DNA from: a phage
Sequence record: OZ346219.1
DNA length: 64,000 nucleotides
Strand: one strand, 5' to 3'
The stretch's first letter is position 1. Every line of letters starts with the position of its first letter. A model generated the notes under the pieces. It did not search any database and had not been told where the DNA came from. It saw nothing but the letters and a program-made list of their open reading frames with translations. The translations under genes and the position numbers were made by a program. Positions 12,622-37,978 of the stretch are shown here, one piece after another.

Positions 12622-12832
12622 TTACCCCGAACTCGTTTACAATCTGCGCTTTATAGTAACCACCGCGAGATGCTAATAGATAAGCTGGGCTTAGGTATTC
12701 GTATTCACGGATTTCTACTTGTGCGTTTTCAGTTTCCCAAATCAGTAAAGTCCACATATTTGATTCTCCTGTAAAGTTGTATCTCGTCTTGATGAATATA
12801 GTATAGGGGATCTCGCGATCCCCGTCAAGCAT

Positions 12833-13381
12833 TTATTTTAAATTTTTTCGAATGTAGTCAGACCATTCCTTCCCTGTCAGTTCGGTCCCATTCTGGAAAC
12901 TGAAATATTCATACGGCATCGAGTCAAGATAAAACAGGATCATACATCGCGCCATATAATACCAATCACGATTAAAGTAAACTACGTTATCGCCAGTACC
13001 ATCAGCACCTTTATCATAACCATCGCGGGTACGGGCGACCCATTGAATAGTATCATTTTTCTCACGGATCGTAACAGGTTCCCAATATCCAGCACATCCA
13101 GCATGACCACACGAACAAGTAAGGAAATATTGTCCTTTTGCTTTGTTGTCGTCCCATTCACGATGGATTGGTTCGATCTCGTGAAACAGTGCTAAGCAAT
13201 CATGATTATGCAACACTGGCTTACCATCAATCAATGCATGGAATGTATACAAACGACCCGTAGACAAATAGCTATCCTCACGCTCAACCAGTTCAATAGC
13301 AATCTTTTTAGCTCGTTCTTTGTGTCGTTGTGCTTTACGCTTACGGTTTAATGATTTCATATTCACCTCACACATTATCAA
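12833..13381 (-). CDS. Hypothetical protein
   Basis: 182-aa ORF between nrdD and nrdG. Confidence 0.45.
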   Translation of the reverse strand: MIMCEVNMKSLNRKRKAQRHKERAKKIAIELVEREDSYLSTGRLYTFHALIDGKPVLHNHDCLALFHEIEPIHREWDDNKAKGQYFLTCSCGHAGCAGYWEPVTIREKNDTIQWVARTRDGYDKGADGTGDNVVYFNRDWYYMARCMILFYLDSMPYEYFSFQNGTELTGKEWSDYIRKNLK

Positions 13382-13917
13382 AGGTCGCGATATAGTACAT
13401 TATGAAAATGAGAACTTGCATTACCAATATTGTAGATAATAAATTCTTCATCCGGCGCTTGCGCTACAAATTGAGTATGAGCAACCGCCACAACCTTAAA
13501 AATACGATCCGTGATCTTGTGTTTAATTTCTGCCCCTACTTCCATAGGAACATATTCATTTGTTTCTGTTTCAGTCGCAAAACAGCCATCTTCTTCATAA
13601 GCACGAACAAATCGATCGCAATCAGTACGCTTAACAAATTCAAGAGTATACAATTCTCGTGAATTGTCGGTATAGACCAATACAGAATTATTATGATAGC
13701 GAATCACATACAGGTTATTATCATCGTCAATTACGCAAAAGCTACGGATTCCTTCGCCTTTACTCCAGCAGATATTAACCACCGTTCCTCTAATAAAAAA
13801 ACTTTCCTTTAAATTAAAACTAGTCAATGTGCTAGCGTGCATTTTAACAACAACACCATCGCCAATTTCCAGTTTACGAAGTTTAACTTCTTTGTTCAGT
13901 ACACAAAACATCATCAT
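13378..13917 (-). CDS. Hypothetical protein
   Basis: 179-aa ORF, first gene after early promoter at 13947-13974. Confidence 0.45.
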   Translation of the reverse strand: MMMFCVLNKEVKLRKLEIGDGVVVKMHASTLTSFNLKESFFIRGTVVNICWSKGEGIRSFCVIDDDNNLYVIRYHNNSVLVYTDNSRELYTLEFVKRTDCDRFVRAYEEDGCFATETETNEYVPMEVGAEIKHKITDRIFKVVAVAHTQFVAQAPDEEFIIYNIGNASSHFHNVLYRDL

Positions 13918-13946
13918 GTTGTCCTCTCGTTGTTTTCGATGTGAGC

Positions 13947-13974
13947 ATTATACATTAGCTAATCATGTTGTCAA
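13947..13974 (-). promoter_or_regulatory. Sigma70-like early promoter (TTGACA-16-TATAAT)
   Basis: Reverse complement reads TTGACA...TATAAT upstream of ORF 13378..13917. Confidence 0.55.
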
Positions 13975-13980
13975 CACCCC

Positions 13981-14011
13981 AAAACGAAAAAGCCGACCCT
14001 TTCGGATCGGC
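13981..14011 (-). terminator. Rho-independent terminator downstream of nrdD
   Basis: GCCGAUCCGAAAGGGUCGGC hairpin followed by UUUUUCGUUUU on minus strand. Confidence 0.6.
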
Positions 14012-14017
14012 TGAAAT

Positions 14018-15880
14018 TTACATGTGCTTAACGCGGTTTACCATCTCGGAGTGTTTCCCGTGGTTGAATGGACGCAGATCAACAGATCCAAGATATCCAC
14101 TAACGCGACGGATAACATTCATCTTTTCCAGATTGTCATTACCGCAATCAGGACAAACAAAACCAGACTCGGTCGCTCTCATTTCCTTAGTAGATCCGCA
14201 TACATGACATACATCAGAAGGAGTATTAACACCGAAGTAGTGCAATTTATCCATTGCATAGTCTACTACAGTTTCAAGACCTTTCAGGTTGTTTTTCATG
14301 TCTGGGAACTCAACATAAGAGATCATGCCACCGGACGCCAGCCAGTGATAATCTTTCTCAAAGTCAATTTTCTCAAATGGAGTGACTTTCCGGTCTACGT
14401 CAAGGTGGAATGAGTTGGTGTACCAGTCTTTATCGGTAGCACCCTTAACAATACCAAATTGCTCTCGGTCCAGTCGATTAAATCGATAGCAAAGGCTCTC
14501 GGCTGGAGTGCCGTAAAGACTAAACCCAAGTCCGGTTTCGTCCTTCCATTTTTCAGTATAATGACGCAAGATCTTAAGAATATGTTTACCGTATCGCTGC
14601 GCATCTTCCGAATCAAACGGATGAACACCAAACAGGACGCTCAATACCTCATGTAAACCAATATATCCAAGAGAGATACTAGCGCGACCATCTTTCAACA
14701 CTTCCAAAATTTCATCGTTTTGATGAATACGGAAAAACGCACCTTCGGTATACAGCACCGGAGCAACATTGGCTTTAGCCCCTTTTAAAGCGTCTACGCG
14801 ACTCATGAGCGCATCAAAGCAAATAGGCATACGATTGGCTAGCTCTTGTTCGAATAGCTCAATTCTGCGCATTACAGACGCTTTACCAGCACGACGCGCG
14901 GCAATAAGGGCAATACGCGGAAGATTCAGGGTCACAACACCCAAGTTATTACGTCCGTCTAATACTTCTTCGCCTTTCTCATTATGCCACACACCCAGGA
15001 AGCTACGACAACCCATCGGGCTAACCGGAACACTAGATCCGGTGATACTACGGTTATTCTTCGCAGAGATATAATCAGGGTAAAGACGCTTACTAGAACA
15101 TTCCAATGCAAGTTGCTTAATGTCGTAGTTCGGATCTTCCGGTTTAAGGTTTAATCCTTCTTCTAAGAACATCACCAGCTTAGGAAACACCGGAGTGATA
15201 CCATCTTTACCTAAACCTTTAGTTCGAACGTTCAGGATCGCTTTCTGAATCAGTTTTTCTTCCCAGCTAGTACCCATACCAAAGGTTAAAGTCACAAAAG
15301 GCGTTTGACCGTTGGTGGAGAACAAAGTGTTGATTTCATATTCCAACGCTTGATACCCGTCTAAAGTTTCTTTTTCTGTCTTCTCTTGTGCATAGAGAGT
15401 ATCAGCTTTGATTCCGTAGGTTTCGGCATCAGCAAGGTGTTTATGATATGTTTTCTCAACATACGGTGCTAACACCTGATCGATGTTTGCGATTGTGGTC
15501 CCGCCATATTGATGACTTGCCACCTGTGCGATAATTTGAGCGGTTACAGCACAAGCAACGCCGATTGATTTCGGACTTTCGATTTGTGCGCTACCCAATT
15601 TAAAACCATTCTCTAACATGTCTTTGAGATTAACAAGACAGCAGTTAGTAAACGGCATAGCGGGTGCATAATCCATATCATGATAATGAATGTCACCGTC
15701 TACATGCGCTTTATAGATGTGCTCAGGTAACACGGTTTTAGCAATCTGTTTAGACACAGCACCAGCAATCAGATCTCGACGTGTCGGGAATGTTCGCGCG
15801 TCTTTGTTCGCGTTCTCTTTGCTTACTTCGTTTTCTTTACCCGTTGCGATCTCTGTAATGTCTTTGATTAGTTTTTCCAT
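14018..15880 (-). CDS. nrdD: Anaerobic ribonucleoside-triphosphate reductase NrdD
   Basis: 620 aa; C-terminal glycyl-radical motif RVSGYLG and CPDCG zinc ribbon; uninterrupted (no intron). Confidence 0.9.
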   Translation of the reverse strand: MEKLIKDITEIATGKENEVSKENANKDARTFPTRRDLIAGAVSKQIAKTVLPEHIYKAHVDGDIHYHDMDYAPAMPFTNCCLVNLKDMLENGFKLGSAQIESPKSIGVACAVTAQIIAQVASHQYGGTTIANIDQVLAPYVEKTYHKHLADAETYGIKADTLYAQEKTEKETLDGYQALEYEINTLFSTNGQTPFVTLTFGMGTSWEEKLIQKAILNVRTKGLGKDGITPVFPKLVMFLEEGLNLKPEDPNYDIKQLALECSSKRLYPDYISAKNNRSITGSSVPVSPMGCRSFLGVWHNEKGEEVLDGRNNLGVVTLNLPRIALIAARRAGKASVMRRIELFEQELANRMPICFDALMSRVDALKGAKANVAPVLYTEGAFFRIHQNDEILEVLKDGRASISLGYIGLHEVLSVLFGVHPFDSEDAQRYGKHILKILRHYTEKWKDETGLGFSLYGTPAESLCYRFNRLDREQFGIVKGATDKDWYTNSFHLDVDRKVTPFEKIDFEKDYHWLASGGMISYVEFPDMKNNLKGLETVVDYAMDKLHYFGVNTPSDVCHVCGSTKEMRATESGFVCPDCGNDNLEKMNVIRRVSGYLGSVDLRPFNHGKHSEMVNRVKHM

Positions 15881-15924: not shown

Positions 15925-16419
15925 TTATTTTACCAGTTCTGCTAATTCTTTTTCTTTAGCTTCTAGTTCAGCTTTAAGCTGTTTAATCTCTTGTCGCTTC
16001 TTATTAGCGGCTTCCTGCTTACTATTTCGGATAACCTGATCTAGATACAACTCCCAATCCTGAATATTTTTGATAATGTATCCGTCAACATTAATTGGTC
16101 GGAGATTCAGTACAGCTTCCAGTTTAGTCGCAAAAACTTTAATTGCTGGCGTGAAGTATTCATATTCGTTATCTTCAAACCAATAACCTAGACTTGCATT
16201 ATCAATACGAAGACGAAGTTCAAGATCAAGGTCTTTATCTTCGGTGTAAAGATCTTTCACCTGACCCAGCGAACTAACAACAACTTTAAAACGAATTTTA
16301 TCTACACCACCAAACACATCAGTAAGTATACCAGCAATTGAGCTATTAGCGCAAGATTGGTCGCTGAATGCGTCAAGGTTTTCTTTAGTTACAGTATACC
16401 AAACATCTTGTACCCACAT
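15925..16419 (-). CDS. Hypothetical protein with C-terminal coiled coil
   Basis: 164-aa ORF, ATG at 16419 after conserved GAGGATTATATT leader. Confidence 0.5.
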   Translation of the reverse strand: MWVQDVWYTVTKENLDAFSDQSCANSSIAGILTDVFGGVDKIRFKVVVSSLGQVKDLYTEDKDLDLELRLRIDNASLGYWFEDNEYEYFTPAIKVFATKLEAVLNLRPINVDGYIIKNIQDWELYLDQVIRNSKQEAANKKRQEIKQLKAELEAKEKELAELVK

Positions 16420-16450
16420 AATATAATCCTCTCGTTGTTTAGATGGGAGT

Positions 16451-16479
16451 ATCTTACTACTCCCGTTTCATCATGTCAA
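16451..16479 (-). promoter_or_regulatory. Sigma70-like early promoter with palindrome spanning the -10 element
   Basis: rc: TTGACA-17-TAAGAT; GGGAGTAGTAAGATACTCCC inverted repeat. Confidence 0.5.
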
Positions 16480-17042
16480 GCGTTAAATGACTTTTGGATC
16501 TCTTTCAGTTCAGCTACTTTATCGGCGCTGAATTTAGCGTAGGTATCATGTCGAATAATTTCACTTTCAAGAAAGGTTTCCAGCCGAGATCTATTTTCAA
16601 TAAGGAACTCTTTCAGGTCTTCCGCGTTCTTGATAAAGATTTTATTGTCGGTAATGTCATCTTCAATCGCAAAGGAGATAGAGCGAACTTTACCAAACAA
16701 GTTAATCAGATCTTCCAGAGATTCTTCTTTCTTAACTGGTTTCATTTCTTCAAACTGCTTTTTAGTGATGCGTTTAAAGTATTTGCGCTCGCTTGCATCA
16801 ATCATGATTGACGCACCCTCATAATCATGAGTTTCTACCAAATACACTTTACCCATAACATTAACCGTAAGAACTTTAAAGCCCCTGTGAAGCACACCAT
16901 ACAGGAACTTGTTATGTTGTGGGTAGCGTTTAACAAATTCCTCTGCGGACTCAGCATTACGGAAAGTGTAATAACGACCTCGTTCAAAAACAGCATCAGT
17001 TGAAGACTTAACCGGATACAATTTATACGTTTTCTGTACCAT
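16476..17042 (-). CDS. Hypothetical protein
   Basis: ORF with ATG at 17042 after GAGGATTATATT. Confidence 0.5.
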   Translation of the reverse strand: MVQKTYKLYPVKSSTDAVFERGRYYTFRNAESAEEFVKRYPQHNKFLYGVLHRGFKVLTVNVMGKVYLVETHDYEGASIMIDASERKYFKRITKKQFEEMKPVKKEESLEDLINLFGKVRSISFAIEDDITDNKIFIKNAEDLKEFLIENRSRLETFLESEIIRHDTYAKFSADKVAELKEIQKSFNA

Positions 17043-17056: not shown

Positions 17057-17329
17057 TCATTTCACTAATTGAACAGCACGGAACAGAATGCGCTCACACG
17101 GAAGCAGCATAAATTCCCAACGCGGATCAAAGTCTTTAGCGGTGTATGTTTTCCCATCAACCGAGATTTCACTTACATAACCAACAGGTGACACTTTAAG
17201 AACAGTAAACCCATTCTTGATGACTTCGTAGGTATCTTTCACCCCTTCGTATTCATCATCTAAGAAGTCTTTATGTGCTTGCTCAGATTTAAAAACATAG
17301 GCAACACCGGATTTAAACATCTTACGCAT
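17057..17329 (-). CDS. Hypothetical protein
   Basis: MRKMFKSG... after GGAGAATCAACA leader. Confidence 0.45.
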   Translation of the reverse strand: MRKMFKSGVAYVFKSEQAHKDFLDDEYEGVKDTYEVIKNGFTVLKVSPVGYVSEISVDGKTYTAKDFDPRWEFMLLPCERILFRAVQLVK

Positions 17330-17360
17330 TGTTGATTCTCCTTCTTGATTAGATGGGAGT

Positions 17361-17389
17361 ATTTTACTACTCCCATTTCTTATTGTCAA
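17361..17389 (-). promoter_or_regulatory. Sigma70-like early promoter with palindrome spanning the -10 element
   Basis: rc: TTGACA-17-TAAAAT; GGGAGTAGTAAAATACTCCC. Confidence 0.5.
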
Positions 17390-17392
17390 CTA

Positions 17393-17866
17393 CTATCTTA
17401 ATCTTTGTATGAATTGTTTCTTATACTTCTTCGTGATCTCTTCTCTTGTATCAGCGTCACAATAATCGAAACCTTCTGCGTCCATAATAGCAACCATCTC
17501 CGCGCGTGTCAAGCGTGAAAATCGTTTTACTTTATCAACAGCATATTGAGGATGTAAATGATTGTTGGTGTAGTCTCCTTTGATGTAATTAACATAGTTT
17601 GTAGCCCAAACAACGAAATCAGCACCTAAAGCACCAACACCAAACCGTTTAAAGTCTCCGGTCAACGATCCTTCTAGGCGGTTGCAACACGAATGAAGCA
17701 ATCCCCTTACGCGGCCTTGCCCTTTCCCATCTAGATCGTGGTCGTGGTCAAGATGGTTTTTGCTCATATCCTCAAAAAGTGGCAATTGACAAAGGGGGCA
17801 AATGCCCCCCTGTTTTTCGAATAGTTCTTGTTTGTACTCTTTAGCACTCTTAGCAGTCAGTAACAT
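17393..17866 (-). CDS. 49: Endonuclease VII (Holliday-junction resolvase gp49)
   Basis: MLLTAKSAKEY...CPLCQ...NHLDHDHDLDGKGQGRVRGLL matches T4 endo VII zinc and catalytic motifs. Confidence 0.85.
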   Translation of the reverse strand: MLLTAKSAKEYKQELFEKQGGICPLCQLPLFEDMSKNHLDHDHDLDGKGQGRVRGLLHSCCNRLEGSLTGDFKRFGVGALGADFVVWATNYVNYIKGDYTNNHLHPQYAVDKVKRFSRLTRAEMVAIMDAEGFDYCDADTREEITKKYKKQFIQRLR

Positions 17867-20547: not shown

Positions 20548-20621
20548 ACATAATATAATCCTCACATCGTTCATTTGATGCGGTCATTATATGATAACCG
20601 CATTTTCATGTCAACAGTTTT

Positions 20622-20996
20622 TTAAAAATCTTCTTCCGGTTTATATCGACCGTCATCGACTGGTTTTGGACTGAATCCTTTATGCGTGCGCGGCTTCGCT
20701 TCCGGTTTACCAGCAATCATCAAACCAAAACATTTCAGCCCCTTATAACACATAACAATATCAACCACGGTCCACGTTATAGGCCAGACGATTGCAGCAA
20801 TACAAAATGCTCCTGTATCGACCTCTTTGGTGTCCTTGTCGAATCTGGCATACAAGCAGAATACTAGATACGAGATCATTGCACCAGTAATCCAGATATA
20901 AAGTACATTAACAATATCTTGTGTTGTCAAATTGTCCTCCTTACATGTCTTGCAGTGCATAAAAGCATTTTTCTTCGTAGTCATAGAAAATGTCAA
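20622..20996 (-). CDS. Hypothetical membrane protein
   Basis: 124-aa ORF with hydrophobic segments. Confidence 0.4.
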   Translation of the reverse strand: MTFSMTTKKNAFMHCKTCKEDNLTTQDIVNVLYIWITGAMISYLVFCLYARFDKDTKEVDTGAFCIAAIVWPITWTVVDIVMCYKGLKCFGLMIAGKPEAKPRTHKGFSPKPVDDGRYKPEEDF

Positions 20997-21216: not shown

Positions 21217-21261
21217 CATTTTGATTCTCCTTAAGAAAGTGTGTTTCGTTTTGATGTGTGT

Positions 21262-21290
21262 AGTATAGGGGATCACCGATCCCCTGTCAA
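21262..21290 (-). promoter_or_regulatory. Sigma70-like early promoter with palindromic spacer
   Basis: rc: TTGACA-GGGGATCGGTGATCCCC-TATACT. Confidence 0.5.
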
Positions 21291-21306
21291 CAACTTTTTT
21301 ATGATT

Positions 21307-21564
21307 TTAGTGAATTAACTCTACACCAAAATGAGGCACAGAGAACGCCTTACAAAACACATATTCATCATGTTTAGGAATCGCCCCTAACCGCTCTATT
21401 TCGCTCGCTAACACTATAAACTGTTTATCTGGTGCATATGCCTTGCGTGCTTCAACAACGCACGGAAAACGCGTTTTAGAGAGTTCTGGATAGTTTTCCG
21501 AATCCAGCAGGACAATGAATACCCTGTTACATTGATTGTAGAATCCTGTTTTTGATTTCATCAA
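21307..21564 (-). CDS. Hypothetical protein
   Basis: 85-aa ORF. Confidence 0.4.
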   Translation of the reverse strand: MMKSKTGFYNQCNRVFIVLLDSENYPELSKTRFPCVVEARKAYAPDKQFIVLASEIERLGAIPKHDEYVFCKAFSVPHFGVELIH

Positions 21565-21868: not shown

Positions 21869-22122
21869 AGTTTCCTCAACCAGTTATTAAAGCTAGCAAA
21901 CCATGATGCTTTTCGTGCTTCTTTTACTTTATGTGCACGTAAACCACTGAAACACCATTCATAATCATCACTGAAACATGATTCAACAGGAACACCCGCA
22001 TTTCGTAGTTCTCTGGTCTTTATCATGAATCCTTGACATAATGGGCGACCTTCAACAATGATAGGAAGTTTAACTTTTTCCATGAAAGTATACCCAGCAC
22101 GGTCAATAATTTCAATCTTCAT
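21865..22122 (-). CDS. MKIEIID-family small protein (paralogue A)
   Basis: MKIEIIDRAGYTFMEKVKLPIIVEGR... paralogous to next ORF. Confidence 0.5.
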   Translation of the reverse strand: MKIEIIDRAGYTFMEKVKLPIIVEGRPLCQGFMIKTRELRNAGVPVESCFSDDYEWCFSGLRAHKVKEARKASWFASFNNWLRKL

Positions 22123-22140: not shown

Positions 22141-22338
22141 TTATACCGCCCAGGCTTCATTTGCACGAAAACACCATTCATATTCAGGAAAATAACCTTT
22201 AATTGGTACGCCAGCTTTTTGTAGTTCCTGCGTTTCTACAAGATAATCAAGCCCATAACGACGACCTTCCACGATGATAGGAAGTTTAACGCCATTCATG
22301 AAAGAAAATCCACCGTCATCAATAATTTCAATTTTCAT
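22141..22338 (-). CDS. MKIEIID-family small protein (paralogue B)
   Basis: MKIEIIDDGGFSFMNGVKLPIIVEGR... Confidence 0.5.
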   Translation of the reverse strand: MKIEIIDDGGFSFMNGVKLPIIVEGRRYGLDYLVETQELQKAGVPIKGYFPEYEWCFRANEAWAV

Positions 22339-23231: not shown

Positions 23232-23522
23232 TCAAATTGTAGTTTTGCGAAGATGGTCATTACATGCTTTTAATGCATCGGTCGCGGTGTCATAGCGAGT
23301 ATTATCATAGCACCAATAACCATCTGTCAACTGATAAATTAATCCATCCTTTTTAGCTTCGATGAAAGATAACTCTTTGAAAGTTTCTACTTTCTTTGCT
23401 GATAATCCACGGTCACGGCGCTTATAGAGTTTAGCCAAAATGCGTTCAGCTTGTTCCTCTTTATCACCAGACAGATCCCAGATGATGTTTCGGATATGCT
23501 TGATTAATTGTTCAGTGGTCAT
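23232..23522 (-). CDS. Hypothetical protein
   Basis: 96-aa ORF after early promoter 23551-23578. Confidence 0.45.
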   Translation of the reverse strand: MTTEQLIKHIRNIIWDLSGDKEEQAERILAKLYKRRDRGLSAKKVETFKELSFIEAKKDGLIYQLTDGYWCYDNTRYDTATDALKACNDHLRKTTI

Positions 23523-23550
23523 CTTTGATTCTCCTTAGTTGGTATGCGTG

Positions 23551-23578
23551 CATTATAGCATTGTGATTATCTTTGTCA
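23551..23578 (-). promoter_or_regulatory. Sigma70-like early promoter
   Basis: rc: TTGACA-16-TATAAT. Confidence 0.5.
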
Positions 23579-23583
23579 ACACC

Positions 23584-23615
23584 CAAAAACAAAAAAGGCT
23601 ACCCCGAAGGATAGC
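23584..23615 (-). terminator. Rho-independent terminator downstream of gp38-like gene
   Basis: GGCUAUCCUUCGGGGUAGCC hairpin + U-run on minus strand. Confidence 0.6.
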
Positions 23616-23623
23616 CCATAAAA

Positions 23624-24400: not shown

Positions 24401-24410
24401 AAAATTTCCT

Positions 24411-24454: not shown

Positions 24455-24676
24455 TTAGATGACCTCTGCTTCACCATCCAGGAAGAAAGACCATGTTTTG
24501 TTAGGATAGCGAAGCGCCCATGATTCAGCAGTTTTAACACCCGCTTCGAACAATTGACGGCTGGTTACTTTAGCCATACCATCTTCGATGGCAACGTTTT
24601 CAATAATCATCGGGTACTTAGCGCCACGCATGAAACCGAAACCAGCGGAAGATTTGATAATTTTAACAGTTGCCAT
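24455..24676 (-). CDS. Small protein distantly related to MKIEIID family
   Basis: MATVKIIKSSAGFGFMRGAKYPMIIEN... Confidence 0.45.
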   Translation of the reverse strand: MATVKIIKSSAGFGFMRGAKYPMIIENVAIEDGMAKVTSRQLFEAGVKTAESWALRYPNKTWSFFLDGEAEVI

Positions 24677-24717
24677 TTTTGATTCTCCTAGAAAGTGTAT
24701 CTCGTTTCGATGGGTGT

Positions 24718-24746
24718 ATTATGCAATAACACCGGATCGCTGTCAA
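24718..24746 (-). promoter_or_regulatory. Sigma70-like early promoter
   Basis: rc: TTGACA-17-CATAAT followed by conserved leader CGAAACGAGATACACTTTCTAGGAGAATCAAAA. Confidence 0.5.
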
Positions 24747-24763
24747 CACTTTCTAAGAAATTT

Positions 24764-25048
24764 TTAAACTAATCGAATATAGCCCAGAATTTCAGCACTT
24801 TTAGCCAGATCTAAAACTTCCCATTCAAGGTCTCCATAGTCATAATTTGCAACCATCAACTGACCATTTTTCATGCAGCAATCATGAGAGAAAATTTGCC
24901 CCGCATAAACTACGATAGTGATAAACTTTCCTGATTCTGGCGGTGTGGAAGACAAAGCGACCATATGACCATTCAGCTTAGTCACCAGTGATGGAACAAT
25001 AAAATTCGGGCTTACCTTAATACCGTTAAATTCGTTTGTGTCTTTCAT
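24764..25048 (-). CDS. Hypothetical protein
   Basis: 94-aa ORF. Confidence 0.4.
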   Translation of the reverse strand: MKDTNEFNGIKVSPNFIVPSLVTKLNGHMVALSSTPPESGKFITIVVYAGQIFSHDCCMKNGQLMVANYDYGDLEWEVLDLAKSAEILGYIRLV

Positions 25049-25730: not shown

Positions 25731-25929
25731 TCTTCACGGTCTCCATAATGGTTTTGTAAGCCAGTTTAAGATGATCACCGAAAAACTTTGCGGTGTTACC
25801 CTTCGGATCGCGGAGCATGGTTTCTACGATCTCATCGGCAGCAACAATTTCTCCTTTCTTTGCTGCATGTTCTACCATATACTTCAAAGTTTCTTCGGAA
25901 GCAAGTGCTGCGGCTACTGGATTAATCAT
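25720..25929 (-). CDS. Hypothetical protein
   Basis: 69-aa ORF after early promoter. Confidence 0.4.
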   Translation of the reverse strand: MINPVAAALASEETLKYMVEHAAKKGEIVAADEIVETMLRDPKGNTAKFFGDHLKLAYKTIMETVKNAK

Positions 25930-25958
25930 TTTGATTCTCCTTTGTTGTCGATGTGTGC

Positions 25959-25987
25959 ATTATGATATACCCTATTCCGGTTGTCAA
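25959..25987 (-). promoter_or_regulatory. Sigma70-like early promoter
   Basis: rc: TTGACA-17-CATAAT. Confidence 0.5.
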
Positions 25988-25992
25988 CACCT

Positions 25993-26024
25993 AAAAACGA
26001 AAAAGCCACCCTTTCGGATGGCTT
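25993..26024 (-). terminator. Rho-independent terminator
   Basis: AGCCAUCCGAAAGGGUGGCU hairpin + UUUUUCGUUUUU. Confidence 0.6.
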
Positions 26025-26030
26025 TTGATT

Positions 26031-27902: not shown

Positions 27903-28137
27903 TTTCTATCACCTCCACCCAATCAGGCGTTTCCTGAAAGACTCCTTCGCCTTCATGATGGTCGCAACCTTTATTGCTGCAATACATCCACCAATCCCAC
28001 ATTCCCCACGGTAAACGCTGCATATCGTCGTTACAGCAAGTGAAGATGATAGGCCAACCACATCTAACACATCGGCAGTTTTCTTTCATGTGAGCGGTAT
28101 TAGGCTTCTTCATAGATGACTCCAATATAATCGACAT
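27895..28137 (-). CDS. Cys/Trp-rich small protein
   Basis: 80-aa ORF with CRCVRCGW...CC...CSNKGCDHHEG. Confidence 0.4.
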   Translation of the reverse strand: MSIILESSMKKPNTAHMKENCRCVRCGWPIIFTCCNDDMQRLPWGMWDWWMYCSNKGCDHHEGEGVFQETPDWVEVIENA

Positions 28138-28340
28138 TTACATTTAGGGCAATGCGGTTCTTTAATATAATACCCGTCTGTCTTTGGAACACTAACAGGA
28201 GCGGTTTTTATATTGTATTCGGTGAAACAACGAAAACAAGTTACGTTTTCTACAGACTGACGTTTCACCCAATCACCGGAATATAGATCATTTTTATTTG
28301 TCATATTCAACCACCACAATGTTAATGTCTGGAGTAGCAA
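28110..28340 (-). CDS. Zinc-ribbon-like small protein
   Basis: CFRCF...CPKCKC pattern. Confidence 0.4.
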   Translation of the reverse strand: MLLQTLTLWWLNMTNKNDLYSGDWVKRQSVENVTCFRCFTEYNIKTAPVSVPKTDGYYIKEPHCPKCKCRLYWSHL

Positions 28341-29131: not shown

Positions 29132-29722
29132 TCAATAGCGTTTAGTCTTAAGAATGCCTTTACTCTTTAGATGGTTAGCCTTTTTTAGTACGTCATCAGC
29201 ATAACCTAATCCGGCTTTATAGTTCCATCCAGCATTGTAAGAAGCTAGCGCGAGTCGGATATTACCGTTTCGAACATCCAGCCAGTATGCTAACTCATCC
29301 ATCGCGTAGAATGCAGAAACCTCGCGATTCATGATAAAGTTGATAGTCTGGCGATCACTCATTTTAACACCGCGCTTTGCATTTTTCGCTTTCACCGTTT
29401 TAAGGTAATTTTGAAATAATCCATAAGCATGATGATTTTTCTTTGGTGCTAAGTTTGCACCCGCGCTTGATTCTTGCCATGCGATACCCGCCAGGATGTG
29501 ACCTAAACCCTTTCCGTTATAGCGAATATTCGGATGGTCCTTTTTCAACTTACCGCTTTTCTCGAATTGTTCGCCGTATTGATAGGCGAAATGTAAATTA
29601 TCTAGTTGGTGTGCTGTAAAGTTGTCTATCGGCGCTTTTTTGATCGGTGCGCTAGTCGATGCGTGTGTAGCACCAACGGCTAGTGACAGACTCAATACTA
29701 TCGCTTTTAGAACTTTTAACAT
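29132..29722 (-). CDS. Secreted lytic transglycosylase-like protein (SLT domain)
   Basis: Signal peptide; AWQESSAG (catalytic E-S), GLFQ and YNAG motifs typical of family-1 lytic transglycosylases. Confidence 0.6.
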   Translation of the reverse strand: MLKVLKAIVLSLSLAVGATHASTSAPIKKAPIDNFTAHQLDNLHFAYQYGEQFEKSGKLKKDHPNIRYNGKGLGHILAGIAWQESSAGANLAPKKNHHAYGLFQNYLKTVKAKNAKRGVKMSDRQTINFIMNREVSAFYAMDELAYWLDVRNGNIRLALASYNAGWNYKAGLGYADDVLKKANHLKSKGILKTKRY

Positions 29723-29807
29723 TAATTTCTCCTGTTTGGCTTAACTTTCTGATTCCATAATATAGCCATATCACCAGAAAGTCAAGCATTATTTTAACCA
29801 ATCTCCA

Positions 29808-30230
29808 TTATTGGTCTACCTTCAAAACAACAGCCGACATTTTACCCGCCAGTCGTTTTGGATTCTCTATAATCATTCGGCAGCATAGACCGTGATATGG
29901 CTTACCCTCTTCGATTAGATCTACTGTCATCCCGATCCACATGTTACCGTCAGTAATTTCTAATCGATTCGGTCGGTCTTCCATTTTCAGGAAGTCGAAG
30001 ATCTCCGGCAAACGAGTTTCTATCTTATTGAATAGTTCCATTGTCTTATGTTCATCGATATGACGATCGGTTAGACGGTCGATCATATGCGGACTAAAGC
30101 GAATGAAAATATACTCACCATAACCATCATTCAAGCACTTTTCTTTGATCTTCGCATTGGTTTTGCGCATTTCGGTTTCGAAGAATCTACGCAGCTTACT
30201 ACGGCGAACATGTACGTTAATTGTTTCCAT
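29808..30230 (-). CDS. regB: RegB endoribonuclease
   Basis: METINVHVRRSKLRRFFETE...RLEITDGNMWIGMTV...CRMIIENPKRLAGK parallels T4 RegB. Confidence 0.8.
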   Translation of the reverse strand: METINVHVRRSKLRRFFETEMRKTNAKIKEKCLNDGYGEYIFIRFSPHMIDRLTDRHIDEHKTMELFNKIETRLPEIFDFLKMEDRPNRLEITDGNMWIGMTVDLIEEGKPYHGLCCRMIIENPKRLAGKMSAVVLKVDQ

Positions 30231-30234: not shown

Positions 30235-30569
30235 TTATCCTTTCTTAAACAAATTGCGAATCCAGTATACAAACGGGATTTCTTTAAACTTGAATTTCTC
30301 TATAGTTAATTCTTTAGTAGCAAGATGAATACCATAAGCATCATGTGTCACGATATGCCATTTTCTATAGTCCAAATGTGAACAACCGTCTGGATCTAGG
30401 TTAATAAGAGTTTCTCGCTCACTAGGATTATTTTTCCACAATTTTGTAATAGGATCGCACATAATTCGACCTAGCGTACCATGAATAATCTCACAACGGT
30501 AAAGTTTTCCAGCAGTGAGATAGGCGCACCCGTCATAGTCGGTATAAACAAACACTTCTTTAACACTCA
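30235..30569 (-). CDS. DGC(A/S)HL-family small protein (paralogue 1)
   Basis: MSVKEVFVYTDYDGCAYL...DPDGCSHLDYRKW; early promoter upstream. Confidence 0.5.
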
Positions 30570-30598
30570 TTTTAATACTCCTTTGTTTCGATGGGGGT

Positions 30599-30627
30599 AT
30601 ATTACTACCCCCGTTTTGTTGTGTCAA
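30599..30627 (-). promoter_or_regulatory. Sigma70-like early promoter with palindrome over -10
   Basis: rc: TTGACA-17-TAATAT; GGGGGTAGTAATATACCCCC. Confidence 0.5.
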
Positions 30628-30888
30628 CTACTTTTTCAAGATTTTTTTAATTGCGTTCCAAAGACCTTTATTCTCAGGTTGTTTTGGTTCTTCGATCAGT
30701 GTCCAGGTTCGACCGTCTAAGTGTGCGCAATTTTTAAGACAAATAAAAATCTGGTGTCCTTTATCATCACGGATATAACCACTATTCGCAAATCTTTCAT
30801 GTGGTGTATATTCATACAGTGTATTTGGTGTAATATACTTGCGGTTACTATAAGGTGTCATCACATACATCATGGTACTAACTCCCAA
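30628..30888 (-). CDS. DGC(A/S)HL-family small protein (paralogue 2)
   Basis: ...CLKNCAHLDGRTWTLI. Confidence 0.45.
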   Translation of the reverse strand: MGVSTMMYVMTPYSNRKYITPNTLYEYTPHERFANSGYIRDDKGHQIFICLKNCAHLDGRTWTLIEEPKQPENKGLWNAIKKILKK

Positions 30889-31085: not shown

Positions 31086-31532
31086 CTAACCACGGGTATA
31101 GTGTTCCAGAACAACGGTCAGATGAATATATTCTAATAAATCTTTCCAAAAGTCAACATCTGGTTCTTCCGGCATACCGTTTTTCTTTGCCTCTTCACGA
31201 GCGAGTTTAACCCGCTCGTAGAGATCTTTCAATTCTTCCCGCACATTATCAAAGGTTCTTTCTCCTAACTTACACGCTAAAATAGAAGAACGTCGCGCGA
31301 GCGGGAATTGTAGATCACCTGTCTGATAGATTTCAAGTAGCTGATAACCAACACGCAGAGCATGAGAAAGATCTTTCCAGTTACTGAAATACTTTTCAGA
31401 TTTGGCTACCTGCTTTTTGAGATAGCCAGACAAACCCCACATACCAACATGATAGAATTTATCTCGATGTGTTCGGATGTATTCCCATTCTCTGGAGGAT
31501 TCAATCAACATGTTACTAGGAGCGTGCACCAT
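31086..31532 (-). CDS. Hypothetical protein
   Basis: 148-aa ORF, start uncertain (overlaps HNH gene end). Confidence 0.4.
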   Translation of the reverse strand: MVHAPSNMLIESSREWEYIRTHRDKFYHVGMWGLSGYLKKQVAKSEKYFSNWKDLSHALRVGYQLLEIYQTGDLQFPLARRSSILACKLGERTFDNVREELKDLYERVKLAREEAKKNGMPEEPDVDFWKDLLEYIHLTVVLEHYTRG

Positions 31533-31963
31533 GTCAATTTAGCCATGTGATGCATTTCACCCCAACATTTATTAAGACCTGTCTCTTTAGCATGAATGAG
31601 ATTTTCAGATTTGCTAGTCCATTCCAAATTATACAGGTCAAAATTTCTTTTGTTTCCATCCTTATGATTCACTTCCGGCAAATTATAAGGATTCGGTATA
31701 AACGCAACAGCAAGAACTCTATGCATATTTAAAGTTTGCTTTATTCCTAACGGTCGGTTACGAACAGTAAACTTTGCATAGTTGTTAGTCTCAGGAATCC
31801 ATATAGAAATAAGATTACCGCTTTTCTTATTCCTGATTTTACCATAAGAACTAACTTCAAACAAGTCTATCGGGTGAAAATAATCAATAACTTTCCACTC
31901 TTCATCATGGTCATCACAATATCGTTTCACATCATACCCTCTTCTATAAAAACTTAAAAACAT
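31505..31963 (-). CDS. HNH homing endonuclease-like protein
   Basis: EVNHKDGNKRNFDLYNLEW...HHMAKLT HNH signature; start uncertain (track start is TTG). Confidence 0.65.
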   Translation of the reverse strand: MFLSFYRRGYDVKRYCDDHDEEWKVIDYFHPIDLFEVSSYGKIRNKKSGNLISIWIPETNNYAKFTVRNRPLGIKQTLNMHRVLAVAFIPNPYNLPEVNHKDGNKRNFDLYNLEWTSKSENLIHAKETGLNKCWGEMHHMAKLTWCTLLVTC

Positions 31964-31977
31964 AATATCAGATTTTA

Positions 31978-32005
31978 TAGAAAAGGGCAACCCCTAAAGG
32001 TTGCC
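31978..32005 (-). terminator. Rho-independent terminator downstream of endolysin
   Basis: GGCAACCUUUAGGGGUUGCC hairpin + CUUUUCU. Confidence 0.5.
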
Positions 32006-32012
32006 ACATAGT

Positions 32013-33033: not shown

Positions 33034-33206
33034 TCACCAAACAAATAAGAAAAAAGCCATATCAACAGAAACGAGGCAATTGATCCGGCAAGCAAAATGA
33101 TATTAGAGAATCCGCCGTCTATCCAGGCGACAAAACAGAATACGCCAGTATAGAAGCATAAACCCAGTACAAAGCATACTATAAGCAACCATAGACAAAA
33201 CGCCAT
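33018..33206 (-). CDS. Small hydrophobic membrane protein
   Basis: 62 aa. Confidence 0.35.
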   Translation of the reverse strand: MAFCLWLLIVCFVLGLCFYTGVFCFVAWIDGGFSNIILLAGSIASFLLIWLFSYLFGEWDLL

Positions 33207-33267
33207 AGAAAGCCCTCCAGTGAGCTAATTTAGTGCGGGTAGTACATTACCCTACCCGTATTGTTAA

Positions 33268-33426
33268 TCAACGCAGAGCTTCTTCTAGCGCGATCCCAAA
33301 CCATCCACAAACAACGCCCATACAGACAGCTACAAGAAGATTCATTCTCTCTTTAGGGATCATTGCAATCATAACAACAACCATACAGAAAGCCATTACC
33401 ATTGAAGTTAACATTTGTTCAACCAT
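33268..33426 (-). CDS. Micro-protein (52 aa), hydrophobic
   Basis: Hand-translated MVEQMLTSMVMAFCMVVVMIAMIPKERMNLLVAVCMGVVCGWFGIALEEALR; not in track. Confidence 0.3.
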   Translation of the reverse strand: MVEQMLTSMVMAFCMVVVMIAMIPKERMNLLVAVCMGVVCGWFGIALEEALR

Positions 33427-34020: not shown

Positions 34021-34041
34021 AATATAATCCTCACATTAAAT

Positions 34042-34242
34042 CTAAAATTTGTTAACGACGAATTGCATAATTAGACTAATCACAAACATTGCAAACCAAG
34101 TATAAATGCAACAGATAAAAGCTACATACAATTCAATCTGGTCAGAGAATACACCGGGTAAAAGCATTAGCAAAATAACAACAGTAAAGACGCTAGCGAT
34201 ACCCGCAACAAAACCAATATCATTTTTACTAATCGTCATCAA
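34042..34242 (-). CDS. Small hydrophobic membrane protein
   Basis: 66 aa. Confidence 0.4.
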   Translation of the reverse strand: MMTISKNDIGFVAGIASVFTVVILLMLLPGVFSDQIELYVAFICCIYTWFAMFVISLIMQFVVNKF

Positions 34243-34448
34243 GTCACCGTTTTGTAAAGAAACACAATAAAATCCAAGACAAGAAAGACAGTGTAAATGA
34301 TCATCGTCAAGACAGTAAACACTGTCAAATTTTCATCGTTAGTTAATTCATAGTCGCCCATCCATACAATCACAAGATATAGCATTGAAAGAATGGAAGC
34401 ACCTACGAAGTTAAAAAACATATTCTTGAGCGTCATATTAACAACCAT
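34239..34448 (-). CDS. Small hydrophobic membrane protein
   Basis: 69 aa. Confidence 0.4.
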   Translation of the reverse strand: MVVNMTLKNMFFNFVGASILSMLYLVIVWMGDYELTNDENLTVFTVLTMIIYTVFLVLDFIVFLYKTVT

Positions 34449-34628: not shown

Positions 34629-34955
34629 TTAGAAAGAAACAGTTTTCAAGAAATCCAGATTTTCAGTGCCGAAAACAGAAAAGTAGTGTTTTCCTTTTTC
34701 GGTTTTAGAGAAAGCGATTGTCTTCTCTACATGGTGACGGAAGCCAGACAGACGATCACCCAGGTCAAGGCGGCAAGCGTAAGTAGTGCCGTTTTCGAAA
34801 GTAACCTCGATTTGAGTTTTGTCATATTCGCTTTCATAGGCTTTTGCTGCCGCGTCCTGTGCTTTACGCTCGAAGTCTTCGAAGTGGAATACTTCGTTTG
34901 CGTTAGCGAATACAGAAGATTCAGAGAAGATAACTTTAACAGATACTGGTTTCAT
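34629..34955 (-). CDS. Hypothetical protein
   Basis: 108-aa ORF after early promoter. Confidence 0.45.
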   Translation of the reverse strand: MKPVSVKVIFSESSVFANANEVFHFEDFERKAQDAAAKAYESEYDKTQIEVTFENGTTYACRLDLGDRLSGFRHHVEKTIAFSKTEKGKHYFSVFGTENLDFLKTVSF

Positions 34956-34997
34956 TTTGATACTCCTTAGTAGTTCGTGTTTCGTTTCGATGGGTGT

Positions 34998-35026
34998 ATT
35001 ATGCTATACACCCTATCGCGTGTCAA
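34998..35026 (-). promoter_or_regulatory. Sigma70-like early promoter
   Basis: rc: TTGACA-17-CATAAT + conserved leader. Confidence 0.5.
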
Positions 35027-35034
35027 CAACTTTT

Positions 35035-35223
35035 TTAGTCTTTTTTCAAAATTTTTAAGGCAGTTTCTACAGCACCTTTCCAACCCTCCCACATAATGGA
35101 CATAGTAATGAAGTTAAAGCACCCGCAGGAATCAACCTTTTTAGAGATAAACCATTCAACAAATCCTTCGCTCATACCATGCTCTTTAGCGGATTCGCGT
35201 AATTGTTCAATTTGGTCTTCCAT
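35035..35223 (-). CDS. Hypothetical protein
   Basis: 62-aa ORF. Confidence 0.35.
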   Translation of the reverse strand: MEDQIEQLRESAKEHGMSEGFVEWFISKKVDSCGCFNFITMSIMWEGWKGAVETALKILKKD

Positions 35224-35433: not shown

Positions 35434-35661
35434 TTAAAGTTGTTCTGCAATGTATGCGGTGCATTTGCGGAGTTTAGCCATAGCACCACCTTTCATGTCG
35501 CTTGCACCTACAAGGTTCATGATCTCTAAGCGATCAGCCGGATTCAGTCTAGTAGCCCAGATCTGGTTAGCCAGTTCCATTTTACCCATCTGCGGTTCCA
35601 TCTCAAACAGTTCGCGCTCAAAGTCGATAATTTCTTTTGCTGCGTCTTTAAAGTTAATCAT
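35434..35661 (-). CDS. Hypothetical protein
   Basis: 75-aa ORF. Confidence 0.4.
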   Translation of the reverse strand: MINFKDAAKEIIDFERELFEMEPQMGKMELANQIWATRLNPADRLEIMNLVGASDMKGGAMAKLRKCTAYIAEQL

Positions 35662-35690
35662 TTTGATTCTCCCGTTTCGTTGATGGTTGT

Positions 35691-35719
35691 ATTGTAGGGG
35701 AGTTATCCTCCCCTGTCAA
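35691..35719 (-). promoter_or_regulatory. Sigma70-like early promoter with palindromic spacer
   Basis: rc: TTGACA-GGGGAGGATAACTCCCC-TACAAT. Confidence 0.5.
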
Positions 35720-35727
35720 CACTTTTA

Positions 35728-35913
35728 TCAGAAATATGCAATATAGTTTGCCAGTCCTACAGAGTCATCATTCGGCATTGCTTTTACTGCCAGTTCAAAC
35801 CCTGCTTCAACTTTCTGTTTAGCGGATTCTTCGTTATAACCCCAGATTACCAGAATAGCTACTACGTTTTCTTTGCTTACTGCTTTCAGTGCTTTAGTGA
35901 TGCGACGTGCCAT
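35728..35913 (-). CDS. Hypothetical protein
   Basis: 61-aa ORF. Confidence 0.35.
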   Translation of the reverse strand: MARRITKALKAVSKENVVAILVIWGYNEESAKQKVEAGFELAVKAMPNDDSVGLANYIAYF

Positions 35914-35959
35914 AATTTGATTCTCCGTTTAAGAAAGTGTGTTTCGTTTCGATGGGTGT

Positions 35960-35988
35960 ATTATGCTATAGGCCGGATCTGGTGTCAA
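35960..35988 (-). promoter_or_regulatory. Sigma70-like early promoter
   Basis: rc: TTGACA-17-CATAAT. Confidence 0.5.
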
Positions 35989-36013
35989 CAACTTTTTTAA
36001 AAAAATTTTAGGC

Positions 36014-36040
36014 AATAAAAAAGCCACTCCGAAGAGTGGC
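36014..36040 (-). terminator. Rho-independent terminator
   Basis: GCCACUCUUCGGAGUGGC hairpin + UUUUUUAUU. Confidence 0.65.
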
Positions 36041-36185
36041 TTATAGGGAAGGTAGCGAATCTTCCTTGTCTCCAACCTGCTAGCGGCCTAGCAAGTTAAT
36101 GCTTTAGCGTACCGGATCGCCCATACGCCGCAATAAATGCGGCTAGGTGACGTCCAAATCATTCTAACCGCGCTGTCTTTAGTTC
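36041..36185 (-). ncRNA. Candidate small structured RNA (about 145 nt) between a late-promoter-like TATAAATA and a terminator
   Basis: GC-rich relative to surroundings, 3 or more hairpins (GCCGCA-TTTAT-TGCGGC, GCTAG-CGGC-CTAGC, GGAAG...CTTCC), no ORF longer than 24 codons. Confidence 0.3.
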
Positions 36186-36189
36186 ACTA

Positions 36190-36408
36190 TTATTTATATC
36201 GCTTTCTATCGCGACGTTTTTGGTCTTCTTCCTTGATAGAGTTAAATGCATCAAAAAGACACATGACACTAATAATAAACATAACCGTATTTTCTACGAT
36301 ATCCCACGGCTTCGCATCAGTACAGATCCCCCAAACGGTAAGAAATGCAAATAAGGCAGAAGAGATCACAAGAATGATACTTGCTAAGATATAAAAAGTC
36401 ATTTTCAT
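36190..36408 (-). CDS. Small hydrophobic membrane protein
   Basis: 72 aa. Confidence 0.4.
   Translation of the reverse strand: MKMTFYILASIILVISSALFAFLTVWGICTDAKPWDIVENTVMFIISVMCLFDAFNSIKEEDQKRRDRKRYK
36191..36198 (-). promoter_or_regulatory. T4-type late promoter TATAAATA (minus strand)
   Basis: Plus strand tatttata at 36191-36198, overlapping stop of ORF 36190..36408. Confidence 0.45.
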
Positions 36409-37154: not shown

Positions 37155-37302
37155 CGAAGCATGTCACAACTGCCTCGTTGACTTCCGCAAATTGTTGTGT
37201 TACCCACTTAAGGTCAGAGCGAAACAATGTTCTATTAATAACAAATGTTTTACCGCTCTTATCCTTACCCATAAATTTTGCTTTAACCATATCAAATTCC
37301 AT
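37099..37302 (-). CDS. Hypothetical small protein
   Basis: 67-aa ORF, start uncertain. Confidence 0.35.
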   Translation of the reverse strand: MEFDMVKAKFMGKDKSGKTFVINRTLFRSDLKWVTQQFAEVNEAVVTCFVDDKKVFEIDRRGVSNDH

Positions 37303-37311
37303 ATTATCACC

Positions 37312-37470
37312 TTATTTGCTAATCGCTAAACCCAATCCGAAGAGAGCACCCGATGCTACAGTATACCCGAAAGTTTCAAAGGCAGTAAAGATATCTAAGC
37401 CACCAGCTAACAGAGTTGCAGTAAACAGAGTACCAGCTACGAACATAAAAGTTTTACCGATAAATTTCAT
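37312..37470 (-). CDS. Micro-protein (52 aa), hydrophobic
   Basis: Hand-translated MKFIGKTFMFVAGTLFTATLLAGGLDIFTAFETFGYTVASGALFGLGLAISK after GGAGAATCAAA leader; not in track. Confidence 0.4.
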   Translation of the reverse strand: MKFIGKTFMFVAGTLFTATLLAGGLDIFTAFETFGYTVASGALFGLGLAISK

Positions 37471-37501
37471 TTTGATTCTCCTTTCGTTTGTTTGTTGGGG
37501 T

Positions 37502-37530
37502 ATCTTACTACCCCCGTTTCATGTTGTCAA
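37502..37530 (-). promoter_or_regulatory. Sigma70-like early promoter with palindrome over -10
   Basis: rc: TTGACA-17-TAAGAT; GGGGGTAGTAAGATACCCC. Confidence 0.5.
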
Positions 37531-37536
37531 CTATTT

Positions 37537-37911
37537 TTAAGAATATTTTACTTCGTCTACAATGTCTTTCATGACATTGATTTCCATTCCGGTCAGAACA
37601 CGTTGGAACATGTGCTGAACATACGCTTTCAGATATTCATTTGATGGCTTGCTATCAAAAGTCTTTTTAGTGTAGTAGTCATCACCGAAAGCTACTGTAA
37701 TTACATTTTCGTCGTCGTTCCAAGCGATATAAGCAAATTTGCCGTTATCCCAGAAGCGAGCACTAATTGCTACTTTTGTTGAATCGAATCCTACTTCGCT
37801 GTGAGATTCAAGAACTACTTGCGTGCCAGTTTCTTTATGAATGTAGTAGCGGGATACTAAGTCAAAGTTACGGGTGTAGTGACATTCGAATTTATCTTTA
37901 AACAACATCAT
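37537..37911 (-). CDS. Hypothetical protein
   Basis: 124-aa ORF after early promoter. Confidence 0.45.
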   Translation of the reverse strand: MMLFKDKFECHYTRNFDLVSRYYIHKETGTQVVLESHSEVGFDSTKVAISARFWDNGKFAYIAWNDDENVITVAFGDDYYTKKTFDSKPSNEYLKAYVQHMFQRVLTGMEINVMKDIVDEVKYS

Positions 37912-37949
37912 TTTTGATTCTCCTAAGTGTGTTTCGTTTCGATATGTGC

Positions 37950-37978
37950 ATTATGCTATAGTCGTTTATGGTTGTCAA
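37950..37978 (-). promoter_or_regulatory. Sigma70-like early promoter
   Basis: rc: TTGACA-17-CATAAT. Confidence 0.5.

Follow-up and report, generated by a model that had tools for sequence, protein, structure and literature searches.

What are the units that recur between the small early genes of a T4-type phage, each joining a strong promoter, a GC-rich palindrome and a conserved leader, and what do they do there? To address this question, we analyzed a 64,000-nt stretch of phage DNA (sequence record OZ346219.1; hereafter, the window), in which a first-pass annotation had flagged such a repeat family at 12.8–38 kb. Here we describe the architecture of the units, their statistical excess, their orthology to published elements and their conservation in relatives, together with one deletion and one cassette bounded by them. 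The units are very probably promoter-early stem-loops (PeSLs), the already known regulatory cassettes of RB49-type T4-like phages. Since PeSLs have been published for T4-like phages, their presence in another RB49-like genome is expected, and in annotation these sites should be labelled early promoters or PeSLs and not new features. The window adds to the published picture a PeSL-by-PeSL deletion of frd.2, a swap of PeSL type at g38 and a hypothesis that involves the phage protein RegB.

All sites cited in the first-pass annotation are present on the minus strand at the coordinates it gave, with palindromes that are exact in sequence and far above chance expectation. The promoter pattern TTGAC-N17-19-TAnnnT matches the window 37 times, whereas dinucleotide-shuffled sequences give 10.05 ± 2.79 matches, a 3.7-fold excess; 0 of 100 shuffles reached 37, and 31 of the 37 matches lie on the minus strand. 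The palindrome that spans the −10 element (GGGRGTAGTAANAYNCYCCC) occurs four times (16445, 17355, 30593 and 37496) where 0.01 matches are expected, and the palindrome that fills the spacer three times (−35 at 12828, 21290 and 35719) where 0.05 are expected. The leader had been described as shared, and it is: GGAGAATCAAA has 12 matches at one mismatch or fewer (2.1 expected), 11 of which are PeSL leaders, and CATCGAAACGAAACAC has five at three mismatches or fewer (0.8 expected). Additionally, a self-BLAST, which has no promoter knowledge built in, recovered a dispersed repeat family of 14 members, 80–125 bp long and 68–83% identical, with 13 minus-strand members in 12.7–38 kb and one inverted plus-strand copy at 52798–52907; E-values between copies go down to 1e-15. 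By inspecting every intergenic gap, we curated 16 units in 12.7–38 kb, where at least 13 had been claimed, as well as three outside this range (5401, 622 and +52848) and one degenerate candidate near 33271 (Table 1). Matches to TTGACA-N17-TAnnnT inside genes (12230, 17512, 29115, 32845, 31537 and others), which come without hairpin, leader or Shine-Dalgarno (SD)-ATG, were set aside.

The unit consists, in this order, of an AT-rich tract, (G)TTGACA, a spacer of 16–17 nt, a −10 hexamer, a leader, GGAGAATCAAA and the ATG, to which a GC-rich hairpin is added at variable position. Across the 19 sites, the promoter hexamers match the consensus at 10–12 of 12 positions with a spacer of 16–17 nt. The −10 element, claimed to be TAnnnT, is of that form at most sites, but five sites carry CATAAT and were missed by the pattern, so that (T/C)AnnnT describes the family; the published RB49 consensus likewise allows C at −12. 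The tract from −25 to −3 upstream of the −35 element averages 73% AT against a background of 60% (p = 5.5e-6). The leader is A/C-rich, often contains (A/G)CACCCATCGAAACGAAACAC and is essentially unstructured between the predicted start and a point shortly after the ATG (minimum free energy −0.2 to −5.1 kcal/mol, z +0.1 to +1.7). All 19 sites lie in gaps of 54–101 nt between open reading frames (ORFs) of the same strand and end at an SD-preceded ATG, a placement with which the RB49 and GEC-3S annotations agree. Sixteen of them fall between nrdG and 57B, where small hypothetical genes form a block, and the only copy in the virion module (+52848) heads a non-structural island between gp8 and gp9.

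Hairpins were located by a sliding RNAfold scan, as strict Watson-Crick scoring had missed terminators with G:T pairs. A local hairpin of −10.9 kcal/mol or lower is present within the scanned interval at 16 of the 19 sites, or at 17 when the terminator of 35988 (36042–36021), which lies outside that interval, is included. This strength is reached by about 11–24% of random windows, and the sites differ from random windows with a Mann-Whitney p of 1e-7; individual stems have z-scores of −2.8 to −5.7. Two sub-types had been proposed, with the palindrome spanning the −10 element or filling the spacer; both exist, but there is a third common type, a terminator hairpin with a T-run upstream of the −35 element. 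Specifically, the hairpin lies upstream of −35 with a T-run in six units (class A), in the spacer in four (class B), over the −10 element in seven (class C) and after it in one. Among the 19 sites no hairpin overlaps the −35 element, and the one unit left, 29785, has weak hairpins only.

The window derives from a Krischvirus (RB49-like, T4-type coliphage), with 96–98.6% identity to Krischvirus genomes, Phi1 among them. When 10-kb and 25-kb pieces of the flagged region were compared with the database, at least 59 Krischvirus genomes matched, kaaroe, FL38 and RB49 being the closest. Minus-strand genes extend from about 1 to 44 kb, followed by plus-strand baseplate genes, and the flagged 12.8–38 kb consists of small, mainly hypothetical early genes from nrdG/nrdD to 57B/gene 1. 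As this is the group in which PeSLs were first defined, the identity of the phage supports that of the units. In RB49 and phi1, PeSLs were described as some 51–52 repeated intergenic motifs per genome (Arbiol et al. 2010, Genome Biol Evol 2:140; PMC2839356). In each of these motifs, a sigma-70 promoter of consensus type is preceded by an AT-rich tract and combined with a poly-G/poly-C stem-loop, for which five positions exist, and the motif includes the SD and ATG of the gene that follows; the motifs cluster ahead of ORFans in hyperplastic regions (PMC2839356). The likeness to PeSLs pointed out at first pass extends to all testable defining features, and the units are orthologous to RB49/Phi1 sites. 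In comparative alignment, their cores are 90–100% identical to orthologues in nine relatives, including RB49, Phi1, GEC-3S, JSE, kaaroe, JK32 and G2248. The GEC-3S record annotates promoters and terminators at homologous positions, including a promoter at the site homologous to 29785.

Activity in vivo has been published for PeSL206/205, 193/192 and 211/210 of RB49/phi1 (PMC2839356). PeSL206/205 shows strong promoter activity, about 13,000 Miller units in a lacZ assay, and the stem-loop of PeSL211/210 is terminator-like, lowering downstream lacZ as much as rrnB T1 does (PMC2839356). The sequences of both elements were taken from the RB49 record: the element tested as a terminator, PeSL211/210, is of the spacer type and nearly identical to unit 21290 of the window over the whole element, while PeSL206/205, the tested promoter, has a spacer (GGGGATCGGTGATCCCC) identical to that of 21290. 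According to Nolan et al. (2006), 5'-end mapping bears out the predicted RB49 early consensus, in which −12 is T or C; the 5'-end mapping data of Desplats 2002 (PMC135041) are cited through PMC1524935.

Taking promoter strength, terminator activity and mini-circle formation from the literature on the RB49/phi1 elements, we propose the following working of the cassette. Each unit separates the stop codon of a small early gene from the start codon of the gene that follows, and its near-consensus sigma-70 promoter would be used by unmodified host RNA polymerase right after infection. The hairpin would be transcribed only in read-through RNA coming from upstream, and it would attenuate or terminate that RNA, so that each cassette would be transcriptionally insulated and would restart from its own promoter. 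At the DNA level, the direct repeats of about 100 bp (68–83% identity) would act as homology patches for phage recombination, by which the intervening genes could be deleted, inserted or swapped. PeSLs have been published as an answer to the question of how small accessory genes are shuffled in T4-like phages without breaking regulation.

The leader may contribute a further function. Strong RegB/S1 sites of T4 have the consensus GG*AGRAYARAA and occur where translation of early genes is initiated (Durand et al., reviewed in PMC3014915). In nine PeSL leaders, GGAGAATCAAA matches the T4 RegB consensus at 10 of 11 positions with the same mismatch each time, position 8 being C, not A, in every PeSL copy; the PeSL block itself sits in an unstructured, A-rich translation-initiation region of early genes. 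The consensus used is that of T4, and RB49 RegB is a divergent orthologue. The regB gene itself is located in the window at 29808–30230, with the GGAU Shine-Dalgarno that PMC3014915 reports for RB49. Among PeSL-proximal genes, 14 of 17 have GGAG as the SD, compared with 21 of the 89 remaining genes (p = 7e-6, the gene calls being crude). RegB is not mentioned by Arbiol et al. (PMC2839356), and putative cleavage of the leader by RegB is a new and plausible reading. Tentatively, and with more doubt than confidence, we suggest that the PeSL is a four-function cassette combining a promoter, a read-through attenuator, a near-consensus RegB/S1 site (GG^AGAATCAAA) within the SD and a protective 3' end. 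If so, each gene travelling with a PeSL would gain early expression, insulation and a programmed early shut-off by phage RegB. The hairpin, 25–45 nt upstream of the RegB site, would then protect the 3' end of the upstream mRNA once this has been processed, which would explain why hairpins without a U-tract are retained.

What the palindromes do is less uniform than had been claimed. A terminator had been assigned to each unit, but only class A has the real shape of an intrinsic terminator, its six units carrying 5–7 T in the 8-nt tail; the other sub-types do not. Several observations weigh against the working proposed above. Most hairpins have no U-tract, the spacer and −10 types having 0–4 T in the tail; specifically, −10-type stems are followed by ATCGAAAC-like tails with 0–2 T in 8 nt, and some of them score as terminators on the opposite (plus) strand only. 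Covariation is thin, amounting to one pair in the −10-type stem (A:U to G:C, with one G:U intermediate), and a single covarying pair is too thin by itself to prove selection at the RNA level. The published terminator assay covers a spacer-type stem only (PMC2839356), and read-through attenuation by the −10 class is therefore an inference, as is termination by the hairpins that lack a U-tract. On the minus strand, A-tracts precede the −10 stem-loops at 17351–17378, 30590–30615 and 37497–37514, which makes these terminator-like on the plus strand; this appearance might possibly reflect insulation against antisense transcription.

A first alternative holds that the hairpins without a U-tract are not sense terminators, and that they act as 3'-end stabilisers or processing barriers after leader cleavage, or as antisense (plus-strand) terminators. 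Such a role would fit the sense-strand tails devoid of T-runs, the GTTTT/GTTTC tracts that follow the same three intervals on the plus strand and let them score as terminators, and the RegB-like site 25–45 nt downstream of the hairpin. The spacer-type PeSL211/210, however, matched rrnB T1 when tested (PMC2839356). We consider this alternative tenable, though on the unlikely side.

It is improbable, on the other hand, that the palindromes act as protein-binding sites on double-stranded or cruciform DNA, either an early-promoter operator or the target of a recombination protein, and not as RNA hairpins. They do overlap the core promoter or lie within it, so that a protein bound there would obstruct RNA polymerase, and they share a recurring GGGG..CCCC theme; a DNA-binding recombination protein has been speculated on by Arbiol et al. 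(PMC2839356), and the loop flips at 12828 and 21290 suggest that DNA hairpins form. However, the stems are unrelated between sub-types (GGGAGTA, GGGGATC, CGGGGA, GCGGTTAT and GGGTGTAT), their positions range from −54 to +55 relative to −35, the loops vary freely and can be inverted, the G:T wobble positions fit RNA pairing better than a DNA site, and the spacer-type stem-loop alone cut read-through in E. coli without any phage protein (PMC2839356). The operator offered as an alternative at first pass is not supported when taken as a single repressor site, with one conserved palindrome at a fixed promoter position: because at least five unrelated stem sequences occur at differing positions, loops vary or are inverted, and G:T positions occur, a single operator is unlikely. 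A binding protein specific for structure is conceivable.

The loop flips themselves were seen in comparison with OZ035808 and JK32. The loops of two spacer palindromes are inverted between orthologues with the stems kept, GCGA/TCGC at 12806–12823 (PeSL 12828) and GGT/ACC at 21267–21285 (PeSL 21290), and such inversion is a hallmark of strand switching templated by the hairpin or of recombination inside the loop.

Do the units recombine with each other, as PeSLs are held to do? BLAST alignments of 11–39.5 kb were chained against nine relatives. The proposed recombinational shuffling of small gene cassettes is borne out at frd.2 and at the g38 boundary, but not by the other indels, which are homing-endonuclease or paralogue events. 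At frd.2, all eight relatives whose fetched locus covers it have 1.17 kb more than the window at 16417–16481, and 65 nt of the window at the junction align to both flanks of this extra segment. As demonstrated by a three-way alignment, the upstream half of PeSL 16479, through the 23-nt SD-ATG block AACAACGAGAGGATTATATTATG, shows 100% identity with the PeSL that separates ORF059 from frd.2 in kaaroe, while from that block on the identity is 100% with the kaaroe PeSL that separates frd.2 from ORF057. Since the two halves match two tandem PeSLs, frd.2, a goF-like mRNA metabolism modulator by RefSeq annotation, was removed by a crossover within the shared 23 nt (16417–16439), and PeSL 16479 is the direct recombination product and marks a precise deletion. 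The junction is present in 0 of 59 database genomes and in neither of two metagenomic contigs spanning the frd.2 site; in IMG/VR, the −10-type motif was found in four contigs only, all Krischvirus-like or of the same loci. The frd.2 junction is a new instance, and a clean natural example, of PeSL-by-PeSL recombination.

The second case is the g38 adhesin cassette (23546–24455), which G2248 and LF73P4 lack. Both have one spacer-type PeSL (TTGACACGGGGAGAAATCCCCGTATAAT) there instead, and homology to the window picks up again in the shared leader; with a different type at the same position in some relatives, the PeSL type is swapped at this locus. Additionally, the terminator of PeSL 25987 borders directly on a variable insertion site, occupied by a gene of 2.1 kb in JK32 and G2248 and by ORF084.1 in Phi1. 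Taken over all breakpoints, the association with PeSLs is modest and weighs against them as the general route. About 4 of 16 lie in or beside PeSLs where about one is expected (binomial p = 0.017 for a small set curated by hand), homing-endonuclease insertions at 15010, 18186 and 31538–32008 do not involve them, an unequal crossover between tandem paralogues at 22122/22169 is unrelated to them, and the indels at 28108–28301 and 34036–34433 have no PeSL. Together, these data make PeSLs a real route of gene shuffling in the window, but not the sole one.

Finally, it is very unlikely that the units are ordinary promoter and terminator signals, independently evolved, alike by functional constraint and with no special recombination role. 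In favor of that view, early genes can be expected to have strong sigma-70 promoters and hairpins between them, the majority of indels here occur without PeSL involvement, and the units are stably kept at orthologous positions. However, their likeness covers positions without a known promoter role (CATCGAAACGAAACAC, the exact SD-to-ATG spacing) at E-values to 1e-15, and the hybrid PeSL 16479, the type swap at g38 and the mini-circles with chimeric PeSLs found in the RB49/phi1 work (PMC2839356) all stand against it. A transposon, miniature inverted-repeat transposable element (MITE) or integron attC was likewise set aside, the unit ends having no visible terminal inverted repeats and no integrase being present according to Arbiol et al. 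2010 (PMC2839356).

Table 1. PeSLs and PeSL-like units in the window, with the start of the −35 element and the distinguishing sequence features of each.
Unit	Position (strand)	−35 start	Features
PeSL class A	37909..38016 (−)	37978 (TTGACA)	terminator hairpin 38016–37995 with T-run; N17, CATAAT; leader ATCGAAACGAAACACAC..GGAGAATCAAAAATG
PeSL class C	37468..37555 (−)	37530	GGGGTA-gtaaga-TACCCC 37514–37497 overlapping −10 TAAGAT
PeSL class A	35911..36042 (−)	35988	terminator 36042–36021; CATAAT; full conserved leader
PeSL class B	35659..35745 (−)	35719	spacer palindrome GGGGAG-gataa-CTCCCC
PeSL class C	34953..35051 (−)	35026	GGGTGTAT-agcata-ATACACCC 35013–34992 over −10 CATAAT
Degenerate PeSL-like candidate	33204..33275 (−)		TTGATT-N16-TAATGT, CGGGTAG..CTACCCG over −10; read from sequence only
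PeSL class C	30568..30652 (−)	30627	GGGGGTA-gtaata-TACCCCC 30612–30593
PeSL-like promoter	29720..29820 (−)	29785 (TTGACT)	downstream of regB, ahead of vs.1 homologue; N17, TATTAT; weak AT-rich hairpins only
PeSL class A	25927..26026 (−)	25987	terminator 26026–26001; CATAAT; variable insertion site 26031–26223 directly upstream
PeSL class C, weak stem	24674..24771 (−)	24746	GGTGT..ACACC over CATAAT
PeSL class A	23520..23617 (−)	23579	terminator 23617–23596; TATAAT; downstream boundary of g38 cassette
PeSL class B	21217..21315 (−)	21290	GGGGATC-ggt-GATCCCC in spacer
PeSL class C	20549..20639 (−)	20614	ATGCGGTTAT-catata-ATGACCGCAT 20603–20578 over −10 TATAAT
PeSL class C	17327..17414 (−)	17389	ATGGGAGTA-gtaaaa-TACTCCCAT 17376–17353
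Hybrid PeSL class C	16417..16504 (−)	16479	GGGAGTA-gtaaga-TACTCCC 16464–16445; crossover within 16417–16439
PeSL class A	13915..14012 (−)	13974	terminator 14012–13991 after nrdD; TATAAT
PeSL class B	12755..12853 (−)	12828 (TTGACG)	GGGGATC-gcga-GATCCCC in spacer
PeSL class B, outside flagged range	5345..5426 (−)	5401 (TTGACG)	CGGGGA-gaaa-TCCCCG in spacer
PeSL, stem-loop after −10, outside flagged range	531..647 (−)	622 (TTGACT)	GGGGAGTAT-aaa-ATACTCCCC 587–567
PeSL class A, outside flagged range	52807..52907 (+)		directly after gp8; heads a gp8–gp9 island made up of small ORFs and a methyltransferase

Further features of the window were recorded alongside. At 31505–31990 (minus strand), an ORF of 161 aa with HNH_3 and NUMOD4, that of a homing endonuclease, replaces the 31538–32008 content of the relatives; in nine of nine relatives its place is taken by 246 nt from the 5' end of nrdC.11 as well as by vs.6, ORF100 and vs.8, and nrdC.11 is left in the window as a truncated ORF of 148 aa (31086–31532). 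The tandem paralogous small genes at 21945–22122 and 22164–22338 (minus strand) share 71% nucleotide identity, and JSE, LF73P4, OZ035808, JK32 and G2248 have a single fused copy of the pair, consistent with unequal crossing-over. Directly upstream of the terminator at 36042–36021, about 170 nt are non-coding from the ORF stop at 36190; with this terminator and three further hairpins, 36015–36195 (minus strand) folds at −64.9 kcal/mol (z = −4.58 against shuffles), is about 96% identical in relatives, has no Rfam match and may be a structured 3' untranslated region or a small RNA. Downstream of PeSL 20614, the ORF068 homologue (at about 20512, minus strand) has TAA for GAA at codon 14 in comparison with RB49 and kaaroe, which would be either a nonsense mutation or a sequencing error. 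A stem-loop (CCCCAGAT..ATCTGGGG) lies directly upstream of the rI homologue at 26950–27010 (minus strand), and its loop holds TATAAATA, the T4 late-promoter consensus. The 475-nt gap at 40037–40511 has no called minus-strand ORF and contains a bidirectional terminator-like hairpin at 40486–40506. Over the whole window, Rfam at gathering thresholds gave no match, so that the repeats are not a curated RNA family, and a tRNA/tmRNA scan returned nothing.

Compared with known systems, the units stand closest to the PeSLs of RB49 and phi1. Both sets have the same promoter, AT tract, G(n)-loop-C(n) stem and SD-ATG over a span of about 100 bp, both lie in hyperplastic regions upstream of small ORFs, and both show chimeric PeSLs at deletion junctions. 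The stem-loop occupies five positions in RB49/phi1 and four of these in the window, where none overlaps the −35 element; nothing essential is different. The PeSLs and PmSLs of T4/PST and KVP40/nt-1 (Comeau, Arbiol, Krisch 2014; PMC4122927) are likewise composite promoter-terminator repeats at indel boundaries in plastic regions, but their promoter consensus is TTTACW or TTGYVH, in contrast to the RB49-type near-perfect sigma-70 consensus of the window, and their stems are AGNA..TCNT or A3-4G3..C3T3-4 in place of G(n)..C(n) (PMC4122927). Two further likenesses are the conserved linker sequences of Botstein and Campbell, which target module exchange, and the morons of lambdoid phages (Hendrix et al. 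2000), in which a gene carries its own promoter and terminator. Morons, however, have regulatory sequences that do not recur as repeats and are not regarded as drivers of mobility, whereas in the PeSL the regulatory unit is itself the recombining repeat.

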